A stretch of DNA of 64,000 nucleotides from Eledone cirrhosa (lineage: Eukaryota), in assembly GCA_964016885.1 (NCBI GenBank), contig OZ024740.1, positions 218,922,001-218,986,000 of the forward strand, written 5' to 3'. Under the pieces are notes generated by a model. The model was not told the origin of the DNA, did no database searches, and was given only the letters and a program-made list of their open reading frames with translations. Both the position numbers and the translations under genes were made by a program. Below are positions 53,999 through 64,000 of the stretch, one piece after another (position 1 is the first letter of the stretch; each line of letters opens with the position of its first letter).

Positions 53999-54168
53999 TA
54001 ACTCCAAGTCAGTCTTATTTGAACAAACCTATTACCAAAGACATTCCAAGCATGATCTCCTCAACTTTCTTTTATATACATGTAGCAAGTATGGATCAGG
54101 AGAATGTAATGTGCAAGGAAAACATTAGCAAGAAAAGGCTTGCAAGATCCAATTCTAACTGATCTGGA

Positions 54169-54313
54169 ACCCTTTAGCATTTATATTACTCTATATTTAC
54201 TATTATGTTTTCATGTATAACATAAATCGGAGTGGTCAGTTACAACTGGTTTGAACAGCAAGAGGTGAGAGAATTCTGGCTGGATATTGGCAGTTTAAAT
54301 GCTAAAGGGTTGA
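54169..54313. mobile_element. piggyBac-type MITE family A, internally deleted, orientation B
   Basis: CCCTTTAGCATTT...AAATGCTAAAGGGTTGA. Confidence 0.75.
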
Positions 54314-54496
54314 ATGTAAATTCTCCTTTTATAACTTATCCCAGTACAGTGGAAGGAAAATGTATTAGAGGTAAGCTAGAGAAGACATCAGCAGAGATGA
54401 CGAAAGTTGATCTCAGAATATTAAACCTCACAAAGGAGATGAATTGAAAATACAAATAGAAAGACACTGTGGTGAAGAGGAATCATTCAATTCATG

Positions 54497-54862: not shown

Positions 54863-56589
54863 AAAAAGATCAAATAAAGTACCAGTAATACACTGGGATA
54901 ATTGCTGGCCTTGTGCCAAAAGTAGAAACAATTGTTATAAAAAGATCATACGTTTCATGTCGGCTCTTCCACGTTGACATGTGTTAGATGGAACTTTTTG
55001 AGGCAATGTTTTACAGCTGGATGTCCTTCCTGACATCAACCCTTTCAGTTAGTTCTTACAACATGCAGAAATACAGTGTATCTATTCTAAACCGGCACAC
55101 ACAGCAATCATCATCATCATCATCATCACCACCATTTTTACATTGGTTTTTCCACACTTGCAGGGGTTGGACAAGTCCTTTTAAGCACAGCATCTCTTCA
55201 CTCACCGCGTTTCTCTGTGAGTTTCAGTGATTTGAGAGTAAAAAAAAATATGAATGTAAAAATGATAATGATGATGACTACATTATTATGGTAGTATGTA
55301 ATTTGAGGGAGATGTTAGTAGTTAGTTCTAGCAAGAACAGCAACCTCAAAAAGGTATTCTCATTAGCTATTCTGGAAACAGAAATGGCTTCTTTTTGAAG
55401 AAACGAAGAATAGGAAGCTTTCACTAGATTAATATGATGTCCCTGCTCATAGAATAACTATAAAATTTCTCTTCTAATTTGAGGTTTCTGAAGAGTTACA
55501 ATATTTCAGTTTTATTTAGTATTTTTTCAATAAACATGTCATAATTCAAAGTGATTTATGCAAACACATATACTTATGCACACACACACACACACACACA
55601 CATGCAAGCACACACAAACACACTCGCACATATACATACACACACAAACACACACCCAACTCACACACAAACACACATACACAAACATAAACACGCATAT
55701 ATACATACCATACTTAGAAACACACACAATTACCAAAATGATAACTATTAGGATGATATGTATGGCTTAGAAGACACTACTTTAGTTATTTAGTTGTGTT
55801 AGTTATCATGGTTTAGATTATTCTAGAAAACTGTCTTAAAACTACTACTGGTACTCATCTTACAAAAGAAATATAATATCCACATTAAATTACTGAAATC
55901 TTTGAATTATGTATTTGATTGCATATATGACCCACAGGCATATAAGACTCCACCCTTCAGTTTAGGTAATTGCAGGTATTATGGAAATGTGCAGCTAGAG
56001 TATATCAGAAGAGAAAAAAAAAAATGAAAAAACATGCAGCTAGATGGTAAGTAAAATTATACTAATAATAATGGTTTCTACATTTGGAACAAGGCCAGCA
56101 ATTTGAAGGGGATTTTGTAATTTGTATGTAAGAGCTGAAGCTATAACATTAAACATTTTATAAAATCTAGATACCAGTAGGGATGAGAATGCTTGTAAGT
56201 CAGAAAATCACACAAAAGAATCAGTCAGAACATTGGCGGGCCATCTGAGGAAGGAGCCCCGTGAGGTGGGTGGCTGTTGCAGTGGGTGTTGCTGGTTATA
56301 ATCTGCAGAAATGCTTTTGTGGTCTTATCCATGGGAGACAGCCCCATTACTACCGCACCCTAGGCCAGAGCCTAATCACGCTCCCCCTTCCCCCTCTCAT
56401 TATTCCATGACACTAGAGCCCTTGCCTTTCCCTTCCTTTTCTGTTTTTGTTTTATATTTTCTTATTTTAGATTCCATTCTTTCTTCTCAATCTAAAAAAA
56501 ATTTTTTTCTTTTTCCATTAAATTGTTTTTACTATAAATGGAAAAAATGAAATTTCATTTCTCACTCTTAGTACAGCTGTTACTTAAAT

Positions 56590-57135
56590 ATAAGTATGTA
56601 TACGTACATACATATATGTATACAGACGTACAGGAGTATGTATATATATACATACATGCACACACATATATATGTATGTATGGGTTTATCGAACATTTAT
56701 AATAATGTTCGGTTTGTTTGTAAACAAACATCCCGAATTAAGCCGTACAGTGTTCAGCAACTATCGTTAGGGCAACGATCGTTTTCAGTATACCCGGCCG
56801 ACTAACTCACTCGATATGCAAATTAGGCTGCTCAGCATAAGGAAAGTATATACTTTCAAACGTTCAATCGACTGACAGGAAGGTATACGATGCTGATGAC
56901 AGCTAATAAGCTAGAAACTAGTTTATCGTTCCTTTGTCAGTGTTGAACAAAAGGGCAACGATGGTTGCCGAACACTGTACGGCTTAATTCGGGATGTTTG
57001 TTTACAAACAAACCGAACATTATTATAAATGTTCGATAAACCCATACATACATATATATATGTGTGCATGTATGTATGTATATACATACTACTGTACGTC
57101 TGTATATATATATGTATGTACGTATACATACTTAT
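56590..57135. mobile_element. Inverted-repeat element enclosing a hammerhead motif (probable Penelope-like or retrozyme relic)
   Basis: About 180-bp near-identical inverted arms (56590-56768 and 56955-57135) ending in TA/TATG microsatellite; hammerhead motif in the spacer. Confidence 0.7.
56862..56948 (+). ncRNA. Type I hammerhead ribozyme motif (minimal, palindromic stem III)
   Basis: Stem I ACGATG(56887-92)/TATCGT(56924-29); CTGATGA at 56893-99; stem II cAGCT-aata-AGCTa; GAAA at 56914-17; stem III palindrome ACTAGT; GUU triplet at 56921-23. Stem I extends via AAGG/CCTT, ACTGACA/TGTCAGT and GTTCAAT/GTTGAAC. Confidence 0.82.
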
Positions 57136-58172
57136 GTTTTTACTATCATAGACATCAATTTACTACTGTTAATTAAACATGTATGGAGTTAGACTAGGTA
57201 GAAATATTGGTACTCTATAGTGTCTTGGTAAACATTAGCCTACCAAATTGGATGATATTTTTAGACTTTTTCAATTTAAAAAACTATGGAAAAGTGCACG
57301 TGAACTCATATGCAGTATATTTATGTGTACTAAACATTTGTTTAGTCTCACTGTGAGGATTTTAACCATGAACATATTGCAGCTACTTCAGCAACTGGGA
57401 CAAGAGCTGTTAAACCTTTTGTTACCAATTTCTATTGAAAGACACTAAGTATCATATATATTCTTTTAAAATTTGAAAATTTTGAAGATTTCAAAGGATT
57501 TAGTAATATAACCAACTTTCTCATGATTAAACTGATGTTTGAAATATAATTTAACAAATGTTCTTACATAAAATTATGATTGGCCGATTTTCAGATAAAT
57601 ATATGCAGTTATACAGAAAACCCACCTTCGCTTACATACAAACTTAAACCTACAGTCAGTAGGCATCTCTTAACCCAATATACACCCCACCCCACACACC
57701 CTACCCCATCCTCCCATTTCCGTCCACTGTAAAGTAGGTGACACAGTAAAACGGCTCCCAGTCCATACTGTAAATGTGGTTGGTGTTAGGAAGGGCATCC
57801 ATCTGTAGAAAACCTGCCAGAAATAGTTCTGTACGAACGAGACATGGTCATCCAACCAATCTTGCCTCAAGTGGGACAATTCCCATGCTAGCATGGAAGA
57901 TAGATGTTAACCGATGATGATGATGATGATGATTACTAATTTTCTTCTTCCTGATTTGTTACCATTCACACCAGTTTTTAGAAATTCTCTGTGCTTTGCC
58001 TCATGTAAGCTGCATTTCCCTTAACTCCTTTTCAATTCTTTTATGTTAGTTTTTCTTTAGCTATTTAGACTTTTGCTTTCCATATGGTGTCCATCTTAAT
58101 TCTACCTTTGGTAACCTTCTTTGGTTCATTCTCAGTCCATGCCTTAACCAATAGAATCACCAGTGTTTTATT

Positions 58173-58399
58173 TTAACCCTTTAATGTTCAAACCGTCCAA
58201 AACCGGCCAGAATTCTCTACCTCTTTCTATTGAAACTGGCTGTAACTGGTCGCGCAAACTGATGTTAAGGTATTGTTCTCAAAATAAATACTTTCAAAAT
58301 CTCATAGATTCAATATTATGTGAGATATTATGTGAGGTAAAGTTTTTACCATGAAAATATAATAGTATATATAGAGTAATGTGAATGCTAAAGGGTTAA
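58173..58399. mobile_element. piggyBac-type MITE family A, orientation A
   Basis: TTAACCCTTTA...GCTAAAGGGTTAA. Confidence 0.85.
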
Positions 58400-58660
58400 G
58401 GACACACTATTGCAACAAGTTTTGTGGTACAATCAAAAGGGTTAATGTATTTCACTGTCATTACAGATCTTCAACCCTATTTACATCTGGATACAGAGGT
58501 ATAGAAATCAATATCTTATAGGAGTTTGTAAACAAAAGAATCATGGTGGAGACCTATTAATGTTAAGTGACATGTTCACAGATTAAAACTGTTGATATGA
58601 ACATGCCCAAAACTGCCTCAATTCTATGATGACAAGTCTCTTATCTTTAAGTATTTATAC

Positions 58661-58876
58661 TTAACCCTTTAGCATTTACATTACTCTATATTTACTATTG
58701 CATTTTCATGGTAAAAGCTTTATCTCACATGATATTGAATCTATGATATTTTGATATTATTTATTTTGAGAACAATACCTTAACATCAGTATGACTGGCC
58801 AGTTACAGCCCATTTGAACAGAAAGAGGTGATAGAATTCTGGCCAGATACAGCTGGTTTAAATGCTAAAGGGTTAA
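58661..58876. mobile_element. piggyBac-type MITE family A, orientation B
   Basis: Perfect TIRs and TTAA. Confidence 0.88.
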
Positions 58877-61321
58877 ATGTAAAATAATGTTGTAGAAGAA
58901 TATTTTTGTTAAGTTATGTACTGAGTACCATTTTATTTTATTAATATAGTTAATTATTTTCCTAAATTCCTTCAAATTGTTGATAATTTACAAACTGAAT
59001 TGAAAAACAGGTGGTGACATTTTCATTAGAAATCACCACCACCACCACCACCACCATCCTCCTCCTCCTCCTCTTCCTCCTCATCATCATCATCTTTACA
59101 TTTGTTTTTCTATGCTTGCATGGGTTGGACGGGTCCTTCTCAGCACAGCATCTCTCCACTTGCCACGTTCCTTCATCATCTCCTCTGTGTGTCTCAGTGA
59201 TTTGGGGTCAGCTCTCAATATCTCTGAAAACAGGTCTTTCTTAATCTACTGCTTCTGGGATTTTCTTGCACTTCTTTCACCATCAATCATCACCCTTGCG
59301 TATTACATGTCTGTACCAATGCAGTTTTCTCTCTTGCACACCACTTCGGATTCCTCTTACATCCAGCATCTCCCTCAGCTTATCCAAGCTCTGCTTTCTC
59401 TCACACTTACATTGTACATCCGACGAAGCATAGAAATATGGTAATGAAAAAGTTAAATATTTACAGTGAGACTAAATGTGTGTTTATTACACATAAACAT
59501 GTTATATATGGGTTCATATACACCTTTATTGTGAATCACTCTGTATTAGTGTTATTACTAATTTAAAAAAAATCTGGCTTTATATGCTCGATAAAAATCC
59601 TGCTATTTCCATGCGTAGTACAGTAGTTTCGTGATGGCATGGTATGACAAACTGTTCTATGGCATTACCAATGCAGTGGTTTTGAAATTGATTGATATAT
59701 ATTTCAACAATGGGAAAGCACAACCATCCAACTTAGTGGACTACCATGAACTACAGGTGGCATAAATAGTAATTGAAACTGAAATGAAAGATGCAAATGG
59801 AAGCTCAGCTTAACTGAAAAATGAACAGAATCATATGCCATCAGATATGGTACTAAATCTTCGAATTTAACCAAATATAAGATAGGTGAATTCTTTGAAA
59901 ATCAATCGGAAATATATCTTGCTCACAGCTATAATTTCTACTTTGCTAGCATTAATCTTCTCACTAACATATTAATATCCTGTAATCTATAGCAGAAAGA
60001 ATTGAAATGCTGGAAAGGGAATCTGATTATTAAATTGTGCACCTTAAAATTTAAGCTATCACTGGTAAGACCTCAACAAACAGTACATCGATATACTTAT
60101 ATGAATAGGCGTGTTATGTCTCTGTGTGTATGTGTGTGTATATGTGTGTGTAGATGTGTGTGTTTGTGTGTGTGCAGGAATAAATACTTATATATGTATA
60201 CACATACTCAAACACACTTACACACAAGCACACACACACACACTCACACTCGCACATGCATATCAAGCAATAAATTTGTATTTATGTATATCCAATTATG
60301 TATATGAATATACAAATCACTATCATTATAATAATCATCATCATGATCATAATGATGATGATGATGATGATCATCATCATCATCATCAATCAAATATTAC
60401 TTGTAGACATCAGTTTTAGCATATTTTCTATGGTTGGATGCCCATCTGATTGTCAACCCCATCACAGAGTATACTGGGTACATTTTATCATGTTCTAAAG
60501 AGCCCTTTCTACCCTACATTATGTGGATTGGTAGATGGTCAGACGCCATGGTTTCCAACATAGAGTCTGAGTTCAATTCCCGCTGAGGTTAACTTTGCCT
60601 CCTTATGGGGTCGATAAAATAAAGCACCAGTAATACATTGGGATAATCAACTTTTTACAGGGTTTACTGGGTACATTTGATCATTTTCTAAAGAAAGAGA
60701 CTTTTAAATCCCGTCGAGGTTAACTTTGCCTTTCATCCTTACGGGGTCGATAAAATAAAGTACCAGTAATACACTGGGATAATTGCTGGCCTTGTGCCAA
60801 AAGTAGAAACAATTATATCTGCTCAATCATCAACCTTTTACAGAGTATACTGGGAACATTTTATCATGGCACCAGCATTAAAGAGGTTACCTTGCCCTTG
60901 GCAAGACTAAAGATGGCTTCCTACTCTATGTTGGCTTTATTTATTCATTCAAAGCACCACTGCATTGTCTTATCCCCAGTAGATAGAAGAGAGGGTAATA
61001 GAGAGAGAGTAATGGAAGAGAGGCTGTGGCAGGAGTGAGAGGGTGGTAGAGGAGAGAGTAATGGAAGAAAGAGATTAATGAATAGCTACATGATGATTGT
61101 TGGTAAGAAAATTCTGTAAAAACAGCTTGAGTGGTGTGATTGAGAACAGTGTGAAAAAAACACTTGAGTGTGATAGGTTACTCCAAAGTAAGAGAGAGAG
61201 AGAGAGGGAGAGAGGGAGAGAAAGAGAGAGAAAAAGAGAGGGAGAGATACATAGATAGAGATAGATAGATAGATAGATATAGAGAGAGAAAGAAAGAGAG
61301 AGGGAGAGATAGATAGATATG

Positions 61322-64000
61322 TTTCTTTTATTTGCCACTAGGGCATCAAAAGTGGGACAAGTACAAAGGGGGGAGTTTACACAAAAAGGCGTCCTCAATA
61401 AGGAGGAGGCAATAACAAAATATAAAAATAAAATAAGATATAACAAAAAATAAAATTTATAACAAAATCCTCAATAGAGAGGAGGCGCCTTGGGGGGGCG
61501 CACACACCCCCGAAAAAGTGTGCAACCCTTCTCCTCAGGAGCACAGAGAAGGGGTGCTCCCTTGGTCTTTCATCTTCCTCACCTATAGTCTGATGTAGAG
61601 TGAAGGCCCATTCACACGGGCCATTCTCGCCACTTTCACCCATCTTTCATAGAAACGGCTGGGGTGCAGCACCTCTCTCTCCATCCTGATCCTTCTTCCG
61701 AAATGATAACGGAAGAAACGGACCAGTTGTTGGCCAGAGAGAAAGGTGCCCGACCTCAGTCCTTTCAGACGCGTCCACCATACAACCTCTTTCGCCATGG
61801 CTATTACGCACAGAAACACCGCCTCTGCTTCATCTTTGAAGGGGGGAGGCGGCTTGATCATTACAATAGACTCGGTGGTCAACCGGATCGGTCCCACCCT
61901 TGACAGCAGTTGTTCGACATAGCCCCACAGATCGGCTACGCCCGAGCATTGTACCAATGCGTGTGCAACGGTTTCCTCGTCGCACACGCATCTGGGACAG
62001 ATCTTTTTGGCGGGGTCCCTACCCGGGCGCCCGTGTCTGTAGAGCCTTTCTCGAACGGGTAAAGCCCCTCGGTAGCACTGCCAGGCCAGGGACTTCTGGA
62101 AGTTGTCCATAGGTTCCGGGCTGAATGTCCTACCGAACAGGCTGGCCAGTTCGTCCTCCTCCATGTCTAGGGCTTCTCCGAGGGCGTCGTCGCACCTGCT
62201 GCGTACCAGCCCTCTATAGAATGTTGCGGTGGAGTCTCCACTGATAACCGGATCCGCCTGCCAGAGGGCGGTGAGCGCCTGGGCACACTCAGTGTGCCAG
62301 GCGCCCAGTTTTCTCGGTCTTTGCTTGACCCAGGATTGCAGCTCGGTGAGTGAGACGAGTCTGGGAAAGGTTCGTCTCACAAACGAGGCCCACACCGGTT
62401 GTCCGGTGAGGAATACGTAGAGGTGCCGTAGCCTTAATGCGTGTTTACGCATCATTAGCCACGGCATCCCCAGCCCTCCTTTCGAAGGGTGTTGACAGCA
62501 GATGGATCTCCTCACCATAGGAGCCCGCCTCTTCTAAAGGAATTGGAAGAGCGCGCGCTCCATCTTGGTGAGGGTTTCCCTTGGGCAGGGCACTACGGTC
62601 AGGCGGTAGTAGATGACGGACATTATGTAGGTGTTCGCCACCTCTGCCCGACCTTTCAGGGATAGTTTGCAACTGGCCCACTTCTGGCTCAGTGCAAACA
62701 CCCTGTTCGTAACCTCCGCCCAGTTTTTCTCCACCTGGAGGTCCGGTCCGAACCAGACCCCGAGCAACTTCACCGGGCCCTCCGTCCAGCGTCCGACGAC
62801 GCCATCGGAGGGCATCGGTCTGCCCCTCCACGTGCCGAGTTGCAAACCGATCGACTTGTCCCGGTTCAGCTTAGCCCCTGTGAACTTTTCGTACTCCTCC
62901 AGTAAGGTGCCGACCGCCTCGATTTCAGAGGCCGTCGACACCATCACTGTCACGTCATCGGCGTAGGCCGACACCGCTTTCCGCAATCCCGGTTCCAAAG
63001 GGATGACCTGCAACAACTCCAACTTCCGCAGTAGTGGCTCGAGAGTCAACACATACAGAAGGGAGGAGAGAGGGCACCCTTGTCGGATGGACCGCGCGAT
63101 TTTGAACAGCTCCGAGAGGTAGCCGTTCACCTTGACCCTAGAGCAGATGCGGCTGCTGTGCATAGCAGTGATCCAGCCCCTGAAAACGGGTCCGAAGCCT
63201 GCCGCCGCTAGCACCGCATCCAGGTAACCATGGTTGACCCTATCGAACGCCTTAGATTGATCCAAGTTGATCAGAGCCCCACCAAAGCCGGGTTCGTTCC
63301 CAACCCTCTCTATGATGTATCGCATGAGGTGGAGGTTGTCATGGATGGACCTGGACGGGATAGCGCATGTCTGCGCATCTCCCACCAGGTTGCCCACGAC
63401 AAGCGCCAACCTCTTTGCTAGCACCTTGGCCAAAATCTGTAACTCTGTATTTAGCAGAGTTATGGGCCTGAAGTTACTTATTTCGTCCCCCTTGTTCTCG
63501 TCCTTCCTCACTAGCGTGACTACGCCCTTGGTCACAGTACAGGGAATTCTCTCGTTCTGTTGCCAGTTGCAGTAGACCGCCTCGAGGAGATCGGGGAACA
63601 AGTCCGGCATAGCTAGATATAATTCGTAAGGAAGACCATCGAGACCCGGGGATTTGCGTTTGCCGCATTGGCTCAGCACGTCCTCTATCTCAGCGGCCGA
63701 AATCGGCTCCTCGCAGGACTTCGCCTCCCTGTCCGAGAGGCGCGGCAGGCCGTCGAGGTATGGACCGAAGTCCACGTTCCCAACCGGCTCCCCGCCCCTC
63801 CCGAACAGTCGGGCAAAGTGCCTTTGAAAGGCCTCACACATCTGCTTAGGCTCAAGAATCGCCCGTCCATCCAGGTCTCGCAAAGACCGGATGGTGGATT
63901 TAGTTCCACTGTTGGCCTCTGTCACGCGGGCCCAGCTAACAGCTTTAGTCCCCTCGTTCCCTAGAGCACGTATTTTACTTCGGACAACGCAGCCTTCGTG
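61322..64000 (-). mobile_element. Tx1-clade (L1 group) non-LTR retrotransposon, 3' part, young
   Basis: GC-rich; ORF2 has RT motifs SPGLDGLPYELY, FRPITLLN, LDQSKAFDRV, QGCPLS and AYADDV, then GGLG and a C-terminal CPRC...HALVQC zinc finger; 3'UTR with AATAAA near 61327-32 abutting (TATC)n/(TC)n. Confidence 0.92.
61583..64000 (-). pseudogene. Tx1 ORF2 (reverse transcriptase plus C-terminal zinc finger) with one premature stop
   Basis: Open from 64000 (HEGCVVRSK...). ORFs 62534-63925 and 61583-62518 are in the same frame, separated by TAG at 62534-36 where FLW is expected. Confidence 0.9.

Follow-up and report, generated by a model that had tools for sequence, protein, structure and literature searches.

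The question raised by this locus is what kind of mobile sequence carries a hammerhead ribozyme motif between two long inverted arms, and which machinery moves it. The locus lies in a window of 64,000 nucleotides (the whole stretch analysed: Eledone cirrhosa contig OZ024740.1, positions 218,922,001 to 218,986,000, forward strand) belonging to a 3.0-Gb genome, and positions given below are those of the window unless another locus is named. The initial annotation had read 56590-57135 as probably an insertion of Penelope-like or retrozyme type with the look of a MITE, a main call supported by the ends of the insertion, by tandem arrays and by the arm lengths of related copies.

An inverted-repeat search returned paired repeats at 56586-56768 and 56957-57139 (183 nt, 96%); on recount 176 of the 183 positions matched and one of the mismatches lay past the end of the element, so the true arms are 56590-56768 and 56957-57135, 179 bp with 6 mismatches. 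The near-identical arms described earlier are thus real, with the right arm starting at 56957 and not at 56955, and the nested hairpins reported with them (GAACATT/AATGTTC and GTTTGTTT/AAACAAAC) are present in the sequence. With monomer positions counted from the hammerhead cut site, the insertion resolves into an inverted left piece (monomer 270 back to 34), a joint and a forward piece. The left piece consists of a 55-nt tail (56534-56589, minus strand, monomer ~216-270), which stops at the downstream end point of the family (B), and the left arm (56590-56768, minus strand), which repeats in inverted orientation the stretch downstream of the ribozyme (monomer 34-215), as had been proposed, and which ends 33 nt short of the cut site and so is without ribozyme. 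The joint holds 9 nt of filler (56769-56777, plus strand, read from the sequence); 56769-56779 repeats 56952-56962, the filler itself matching 56952-56960, and it is likely the product of a short template switch. The forward piece (56778-57135, plus strand, monomer 269-425 then 1-215) has an 11-nt deletion after 56836, crosses the cut site, includes the right arm (56957-57135, plus strand, monomer 34-215, with nested hairpins and a TA/CA-rich stretch) and ends at the upstream end point (A), such that this copy carries B on the left and A on the right. The fold-back has a folding energy of -337.5 kcal/mol (z = -35 against shuffles).

The whole insertion spans 56534-57135 and is wider than first called, the left inverted piece running 56 nt further, to 56534; the TA/TATG ends noted earlier are accordingly not the termini of a terminal inverted repeat. 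A target site duplication (TSD), previously reported as not clear, flanks the whole insertion: TGTTTTTACTAT occurs on the plus strand at 56524-56535, where its last 2 bases are common to the end of the element, and at 57135-57146, where its first base is, with no third site in the window. The duplication is unambiguous over 9 bp and reaches 12 bp if the bases common to the ends of the element are counted. The target was AT-rich, non-microsatellite DNA and not (TA)n, and GC content over 56001-58000 was 0.35. No ORF of at least 120 aa in the window ORF list overlaps the insertion, in agreement with the earlier statement that it holds no real ORF, and no terminal direct repeats beyond the TSD were found by repeat search and monomer alignment. 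This copy is 93% identical to the family majority, and its two arms have four minority variants in common, one of which was absent from 329 other occurrences. Elsewhere in the window, a second fold-back repeat was observed at 58172-58877 (arms 58219-58327/58721-58829, 88%, and 58325-58400/58660-58735, 91%), with related pieces at 54168-54320; the hammerhead pattern had no match in 58172-58877 when the window was searched. A GC-rich stretch at 61583-62870 (minus strand) holds ORFs of 316 and 141 aa, which by eye we take to resemble the 3' part of a LINE.

The hammerhead reported between the arms was recovered by pattern search as a single match in the window (56887-56929, cut site 56923/56924; 0 of 100 shuffles), within a type I hammerhead with extended stem I at 56862-56948 (plus strand, pattern search and alignment). 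On the plus strand it is composed of stem I (56887-56892/56924-56929), the CUGAUGA box (56893-56899), a C.A mismatch at the base of stem II (56900/56913), a stem II of 4 bp (56901-56904/56909-56912), the GAAA box (56914-56917) and the palindrome ACUAGU (56917-56922), with the cut predicted after a GUU triplet (56923). The features of a type I hammerhead, namely CUGANGA and GAAA boxes, NUH triplet, stems I and II and a palindromic helix III, are therefore present. The G10.1-C11.1 pair closing stem II is absent (C.A in the window subfamily, U.U in the main subfamily), so that cleavage may be weak. An Rfam search gave 0 hits at the gathering threshold and no hammerhead family among 64 weak hits; its microRNA hits were set aside as TA/CA-repeat matches below threshold.

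The 78 loci selected with the arm motif yielded 93 pieces that span the ribozyme, and 71 of these have an intact core. Common variants fell at N7, at the H of the triplet, in loop II, at one stem I position (A-U or G-U) and at the pair closing stem II (U.U or C.A), and the common subfamily changes missed all 11 invariant core positions; the base next to the cut is U in the window copy and C in 92 of the 93 sampled copies. In 16 aligned rows 98% of hammerhead stem cells were paired, with no double-sided covariation and with the shuffle control not beaten, and the structure is thus compatible with these data but not proven by them. The GAACATT/AATGTTC hairpin changes on both sides between subfamilies (by eye, 8 rows). 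Hammerheads with a short palindromic helix III are expected to cut as dimers (PMC4209133), and from its palindromic 2-bp stem III this hammerhead is predicted to cut only when dimeric, as it would be in tandem arrays.

The window locus is one slightly decayed copy among tens of thousands. A degenerate core pattern had 27,334 exact matches genome-wide (control, 0), the 35-mer of the window subfamily 600 exact matches and the arm 31-mer 2,849 matches; the core search yielded 2,076 candidates, of which 40 were scored. The repeating unit is a protein-less, head-to-tail monomer of ~430 nt that carries a single type I hammerhead; its length was 413-433 nt over 16 loci and reaches about 500 nt in related subfamilies. 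It is found as single, tandem and head-to-head copies, the tandem arrays including locus L011 and, elsewhere, runs of 5-8 cores spaced 420-500 nt. The circular monomer fold had z = -10.7, and -5.2 without its TA-rich part (40 shuffles each). Inside a 28-nt block that is invariant in 8 of 8 aligned representatives lies the octamer ATGCAAAT (56816-56823, plus strand), which we take to be a candidate promoter element; it was intact in 130 of 155 copies, about equal to the neighbouring 8-mers, and since it is no better kept than these its promoter role is only a lead.

Insertion architecture was scored in 78 loci picked by the arm motif: 44 were head-to-head, 32 of single orientation and 2 other, and 57 of the 78 were longer than one monomer. 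Arm length, which the initial annotation had proposed to compare among copies, varied, the shorter arm measuring between 24 and 450 nt in the 44 head-to-head insertions and the 32 single-orientation loci having no inverted arm. Copies of the unit show variable 5' truncation and stop at two fixed points 55 nt apart, at monomer 215 (A) and 270 (B), usually in (TA)n. At site A, 56 of 180 occurrences ran into (AT)n-like DNA, 92 continued and 32 were unclassified, many of the latter being variant continuations of the unit; at site B the corresponding counts were 42, 70 and 20 of 132. After 15 of the 44 head-to-head insertions had been left out for at least one unclassified end, the end pairs of the remaining 29 were 28 A+B, 1 A+A and 0 B+B, an excess of A+B over independent choice of ends (p = 5.6e-8). 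A TSD of about 12 bp was read in L047 and of 13 bp in L020, and none was readable in (TA)n targets. In three sequencing runs of one sample, of unrecorded type and behaving like genomic DNA, 37-48 contigs per run had a (TA)n loose end at 56533, from other copies.

Divergence between the two outer arms of an insertion was 6.1% of sites, and shuffled pairs gave 9.4% (83 pairs, taken from 225 loci in a sample that mixes subfamilies; 0 of 1000 shuffles), and the 83 pairs had ~10 times more rare variants in common than shuffled pairs; in a cruder test on 60-nt segments the arms were no more alike than random copies (0.928 vs 0.924). As judged from sequence, a common template is the simplest reading for the arms of one insertion, and gene conversion after insertion could also make them alike. 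Copies were often observed in the (TA)n that terminates another element of Penelope-like or hammerhead type, and the flanks of L003, L050, L058, L093, L155 and L225 are pile-ups of elements with one common target type.

The pieces also bear on whether the RNA template was cut. The arm 31-mer was present in 88 pieces; 66 of these cross the cut site, and the other 22 end between positions 25 and 96, none of them within 5 nt of the cut; over all 175 pieces, one stops that close. This read-through indicates that linear self-cut monomers are not the usual template, and uncut multimers and circles both fit. An excess of 5' ends at the cut site was sought genome-wide and rejected, 13 clean breaks being found there and 12 at a control position 10 nt further downstream, the 20-mers of the two sites being about equally frequent (36 vs 33) and two of the 13 breaks being internal deletions and two a single locus. 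For 3' breaks at the cut site there were 2 matches in one search and 23 (control 4) in another, counts obtained without positional control and made up of a mixture of chance, deletions and chimeras.

Two loci, L257 (identical to L040; reverse strand near 1536) and L273, are chimeric insertions of two hammerhead families, in which the 5' part comes from a window-type ribozyme and ends precisely at the cut site of that ribozyme, and the 3' part comes from another hammerhead-like motif and begins precisely at the cut site predicted for that motif. Having variants in common, the two probably descend from one event, and they are possibly the record of cleavage followed by ligation, or of a template jump; the junctions are one hint of cleavage in vivo. 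The partner hammerhead-like motif (L155:2113, L099) had 1,707 matches genome-wide and reads UUGAAAA, a U3-A8 swap; its copies also end in (TA)n, and most copies listed have GCAA in place of GAAA, which makes the activity of the partner motif itself doubtful.

Candidate mobilisers were sought through GIY-YIG sequences (10,596 candidates, 150 of which were scored), and a Pfam scan of 20 ORFs identified ORFs with both RT and GIY-YIG domains of up to 938 aa in the genome. Two autonomous Penelope-like families were recovered (L082, L087-L089 and L093, 3' of the ORF; L084, L091 and L096), each having hammerheads of its own and a pair of 3' ends that lie 55-65 nt from each other and lead into (TA)n; in one of the two families there are two hammerhead motifs, each beginning with UUGA, with a spacing of about 180 nt. 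The retrozyme unit was not the element's own end at any of the 40 GIY-YIG loci inspected (20 + 20, of the 10,596 candidates), and two of the 40 have a copy of the retrozyme family nearby, separate from the ORF. Nor was an autonomous parent found among 50 loci of divergent subfamilies (30 + 20) or by flank clustering, and in the loci examined no RT or GIY-YIG ORF lay in the unit or continuous with it. Of the two settings in which the initial annotation had suggested looking for the unit, tandem arrays were found and continuity with GIY-YIG/RT ORFs was not, in the loci sampled. The ORFs near copies L092, L093, L131 and L225 were rejected as parents, these copies sitting in (TA)n beside separate elements, and a 4.5-kb pair at L221 was set aside as a local duplication around unrelated DNA. 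Since no parent was found in the sampled loci, the Penelope partner is inferred from the insertion signature and not identified.

The window insertion is, with high confidence, a ~430-nt protein-less non-LTR retrozyme, most likely copied in trans by a Penelope-like RT and GIY-YIG endonuclease. The mechanism proposed here is modelled on an Anolis Penelope-like element, in which both strands are cut and extended, two internal start sites define the tail and uncut RNA is the main substrate (PMC11167929, in its passages on the reaction), and on the described pattern of Penelope-like insertions, with one-sided tail, inverted copies and microsatellite target bias (PMC8557442, in its passages on insertion structure). 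Transcription of tandem arrays, perhaps driven by a promoter inside the unit that contains the octamer, would yield multimeric RNA, and the RNA would be bound by a Penelope protein which, probably as a dimer, would nick both target strands 9-12 bp apart. With an uncut multimer or a circle as template, reverse transcription from one target strand would begin at internal site A and that from the opposite strand at internal site B, and the two cDNAs would be joined mid-insertion through short homologies; such a double start and joining would leave an inverted arm, a one-sided tail and a TSD. A more far-reaching proposal, which we put forward tentatively and consider doubtful as a whole, is that in octopus-like genomes more than 27,000 hammerhead RNAs with their own conserved octamer promoter are expressed as circles, that a Penelope protein, acting as a dimer, copies a single RNA two times, once from each of two fixed starts, each head-to-head insertion recording both halves of one reaction, and that products of different families are sometimes joined cut site to cut site and then retrotransposed, as in L257 and L273. 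If this were true, these chimeras would be a genomic record of in vivo cleavage and ligation.

Three other origins were weighed. The window copy might be only the truncated ribozyme-bearing end, or pseudo-LTR, of an autonomous Penelope-like element and not an independently amplifying retrozyme; its anatomy equals that of the autonomous elements in this genome, and with 40 of 10,596 GIY-YIG candidates inspected a parent could have been missed. Against this origin, which we consider improbable, copies continue 5' into another copy of the unit and not into an ORF (the 66 of 88 pieces crossing the cut site), pure tandem arrays occur, 57 of 78 insertions exceed one monomer, and the ORFs near copies belong to separate elements, so that, of the two, a non-autonomous retrozyme with Penelope-type ends is better supported than a remnant of an ORF-bearing element. 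Mobilisation by a LINE, the inversion being made by twin priming on one linear RNA, agrees with the window copy taken by itself, where the inverted piece has its outer end at template position 270, next to position 269 at which the forward piece begins, and where a 9-12 bp TSD is accompanied by a few bases of homology to the target. It does not fit the family: forward pieces of other head-to-head copies start all around the monomer, inverted and forward pieces end at one pair of fixed points in the A+B pattern, and no poly(A) or other LINE-type 3' end was seen in the copies examined. Twin priming is largely refuted by the fixed A+B ends and is held to be very improbable. Near-perfect arms and the lack of an ORF would also suit a MITE with 180-bp terminal inverted repeats and a hammerhead-like motif arisen by chance, an origin to which we assign next to no probability: the arms are not terminal, the left piece having 56 extra bases, the variation in arm length (24-450 nt for the shorter arm, with 32 of 78 loci lacking an inverted arm) shows that the family is not a MITE, tandem arrays exist, and no fixed terminal inverted repeats with a constant TSD were found across copies. 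The initial annotation had named fixed terminal inverted repeats with an unconserved ribozyme as what would speak against its call; what was found is variable arms and a core intact in 71 of 93 pieces.

A further reading, compatible with the preferred origin as a retrozyme moved by a Penelope-like protein, concerns function and not origin: the window copy might work as a fold-back RNA locus, serving as ADAR or Dicer substrate or as precursor of a circular RNA. Either strand would be expected to form a duplex of ~179 bp, which agrees with the long double-stranded stem foreseen in the initial annotation, where a circular precursor had been suggested as well; the latter part is weaker, the one hammerhead, which needs a partner, being unable to release a monomer by itself. 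The insertion carries this one hammerhead only (pattern search), and a single weak hammerhead of dimer type makes it a poor circular-RNA precursor by itself. The dimer-type stem III, the U next to the cut and the 11-nt deletion upstream also speak against such a role, as do the lack of an A-to-G excess in this copy, 93% identical to the family majority, and of an identified host gene around it. We therefore consider a working fold-back RNA locus unlikely, if less so than any of the three other origins, and the copy is probably inert apart from the 179-bp duplex if transcribed. A-to-G hyperediting was looked for and rejected, with none seen in the window copy and 2 of 404 segments passing a loose screen. 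The head-to-head copy at L251:1288-1747, which starts at the cut site, weakly suggests reverse transcription of an edited RNA: read on the locus strand, one of its arms shows 4 A-to-G changes and the opposite arm 5 T-to-C changes.

Known animal non-LTR retrozymes have repeats of 350-390 bp in mussel and 330/350 bp in axolotl (PMC7229834; 10.64898/2026.07.22.740005, each for the species data it gives). As far as the relevant sections of these sources describe them, the present family is like them in having a short, protein-less, AT-rich unit that bears one type I hammerhead and occurs alone or in tandem, in its TSD of more than 4 bp, strongly folded monomer and thousands of copies, and in sharing its genome with Penelope-like elements. 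Axolotl HHR_Amex2 likewise has a mismatch at the base of stem II, in its case U.U (PMC7229834). The unit is head-to-tail and within ~150-450 bp, without coding capacity or LTR, with GC below 50% and a TSD of more than 4 bp; by this sequence-level definition, the window copy is a new member of the animal non-LTR retrozymes. An active retrozyme is defined by two or more consecutive units with complete hammerheads (10.64898/2026.07.22.740005, in its definitions), and the window copy, having one hammerhead, falls outside that definition; consecutive complete hammerhead units are present in the family (L011 and other arrays) and absent in this copy. Unlike in the animal retrozymes, cleavage, expression and circles are here only predicted from sequence, and unlike in retrozymes as described, more than half of the sampled insertions are head-to-head with a one-sided tail ('tail' has 0 occurrences and 'inverted' 1 in the accessible text of 10.64898/2026.07.22.740005). 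A literature search found no published report of this hammerhead family, and supplements of papers may still list cephalopod hammerheads.

In the respects covered by excerpts of PMC8557442, PMC11167929 and PMC4209133, the family resembles the endonuclease-bearing Penelope-like elements (Penelope/Poseidon, Neptune, Naiad) in its hammerhead, whose palindromic helix III is small, in its 5'-truncated copies, partial tandems and neighbouring inverted copy, in a one-end tail set by two starts and, for the family, in (TA)n targets. Unlike them, the unit has no RT or GIY-YIG ORF, and it has no homology to any sampled autonomous pseudo-LTR (40 loci). The tail measures 55 nt here against 30-40 bp published for Penelope-like elements, and the family lacks the G10.1-C11.1 pair, unlike Penelope-like hammerheads, both comparisons being with the elements that these excerpts describe.

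Newt satellite 2 is driven by an snRNA-type promoter with an octamer. An octamer motif is conserved in the window family, as in newt satellite 2, with a candidate promoter role only. Unlike that satellite, a tandem hammerhead repeat cutting as a dimer (PMC7229834, section on the newt repeat), the copies here are mostly dispersed and have Penelope-type ends.

The published case for Penelope-like mobilisation of retrozymes is made from shared ribozymes, co-occurrence and phylogeny. Insertion ends are independent evidence at the level of mechanism, naming two start sites, A and B, and the family bears on which machinery moves animal retrozymes and whether self-cleavage is needed. The A+B asymmetry, arms of the same lineage and read-through of the cut site make the question of mobilisation testable, and long double-stranded RNA could arise in quantity from the thousands of fold-back copies.
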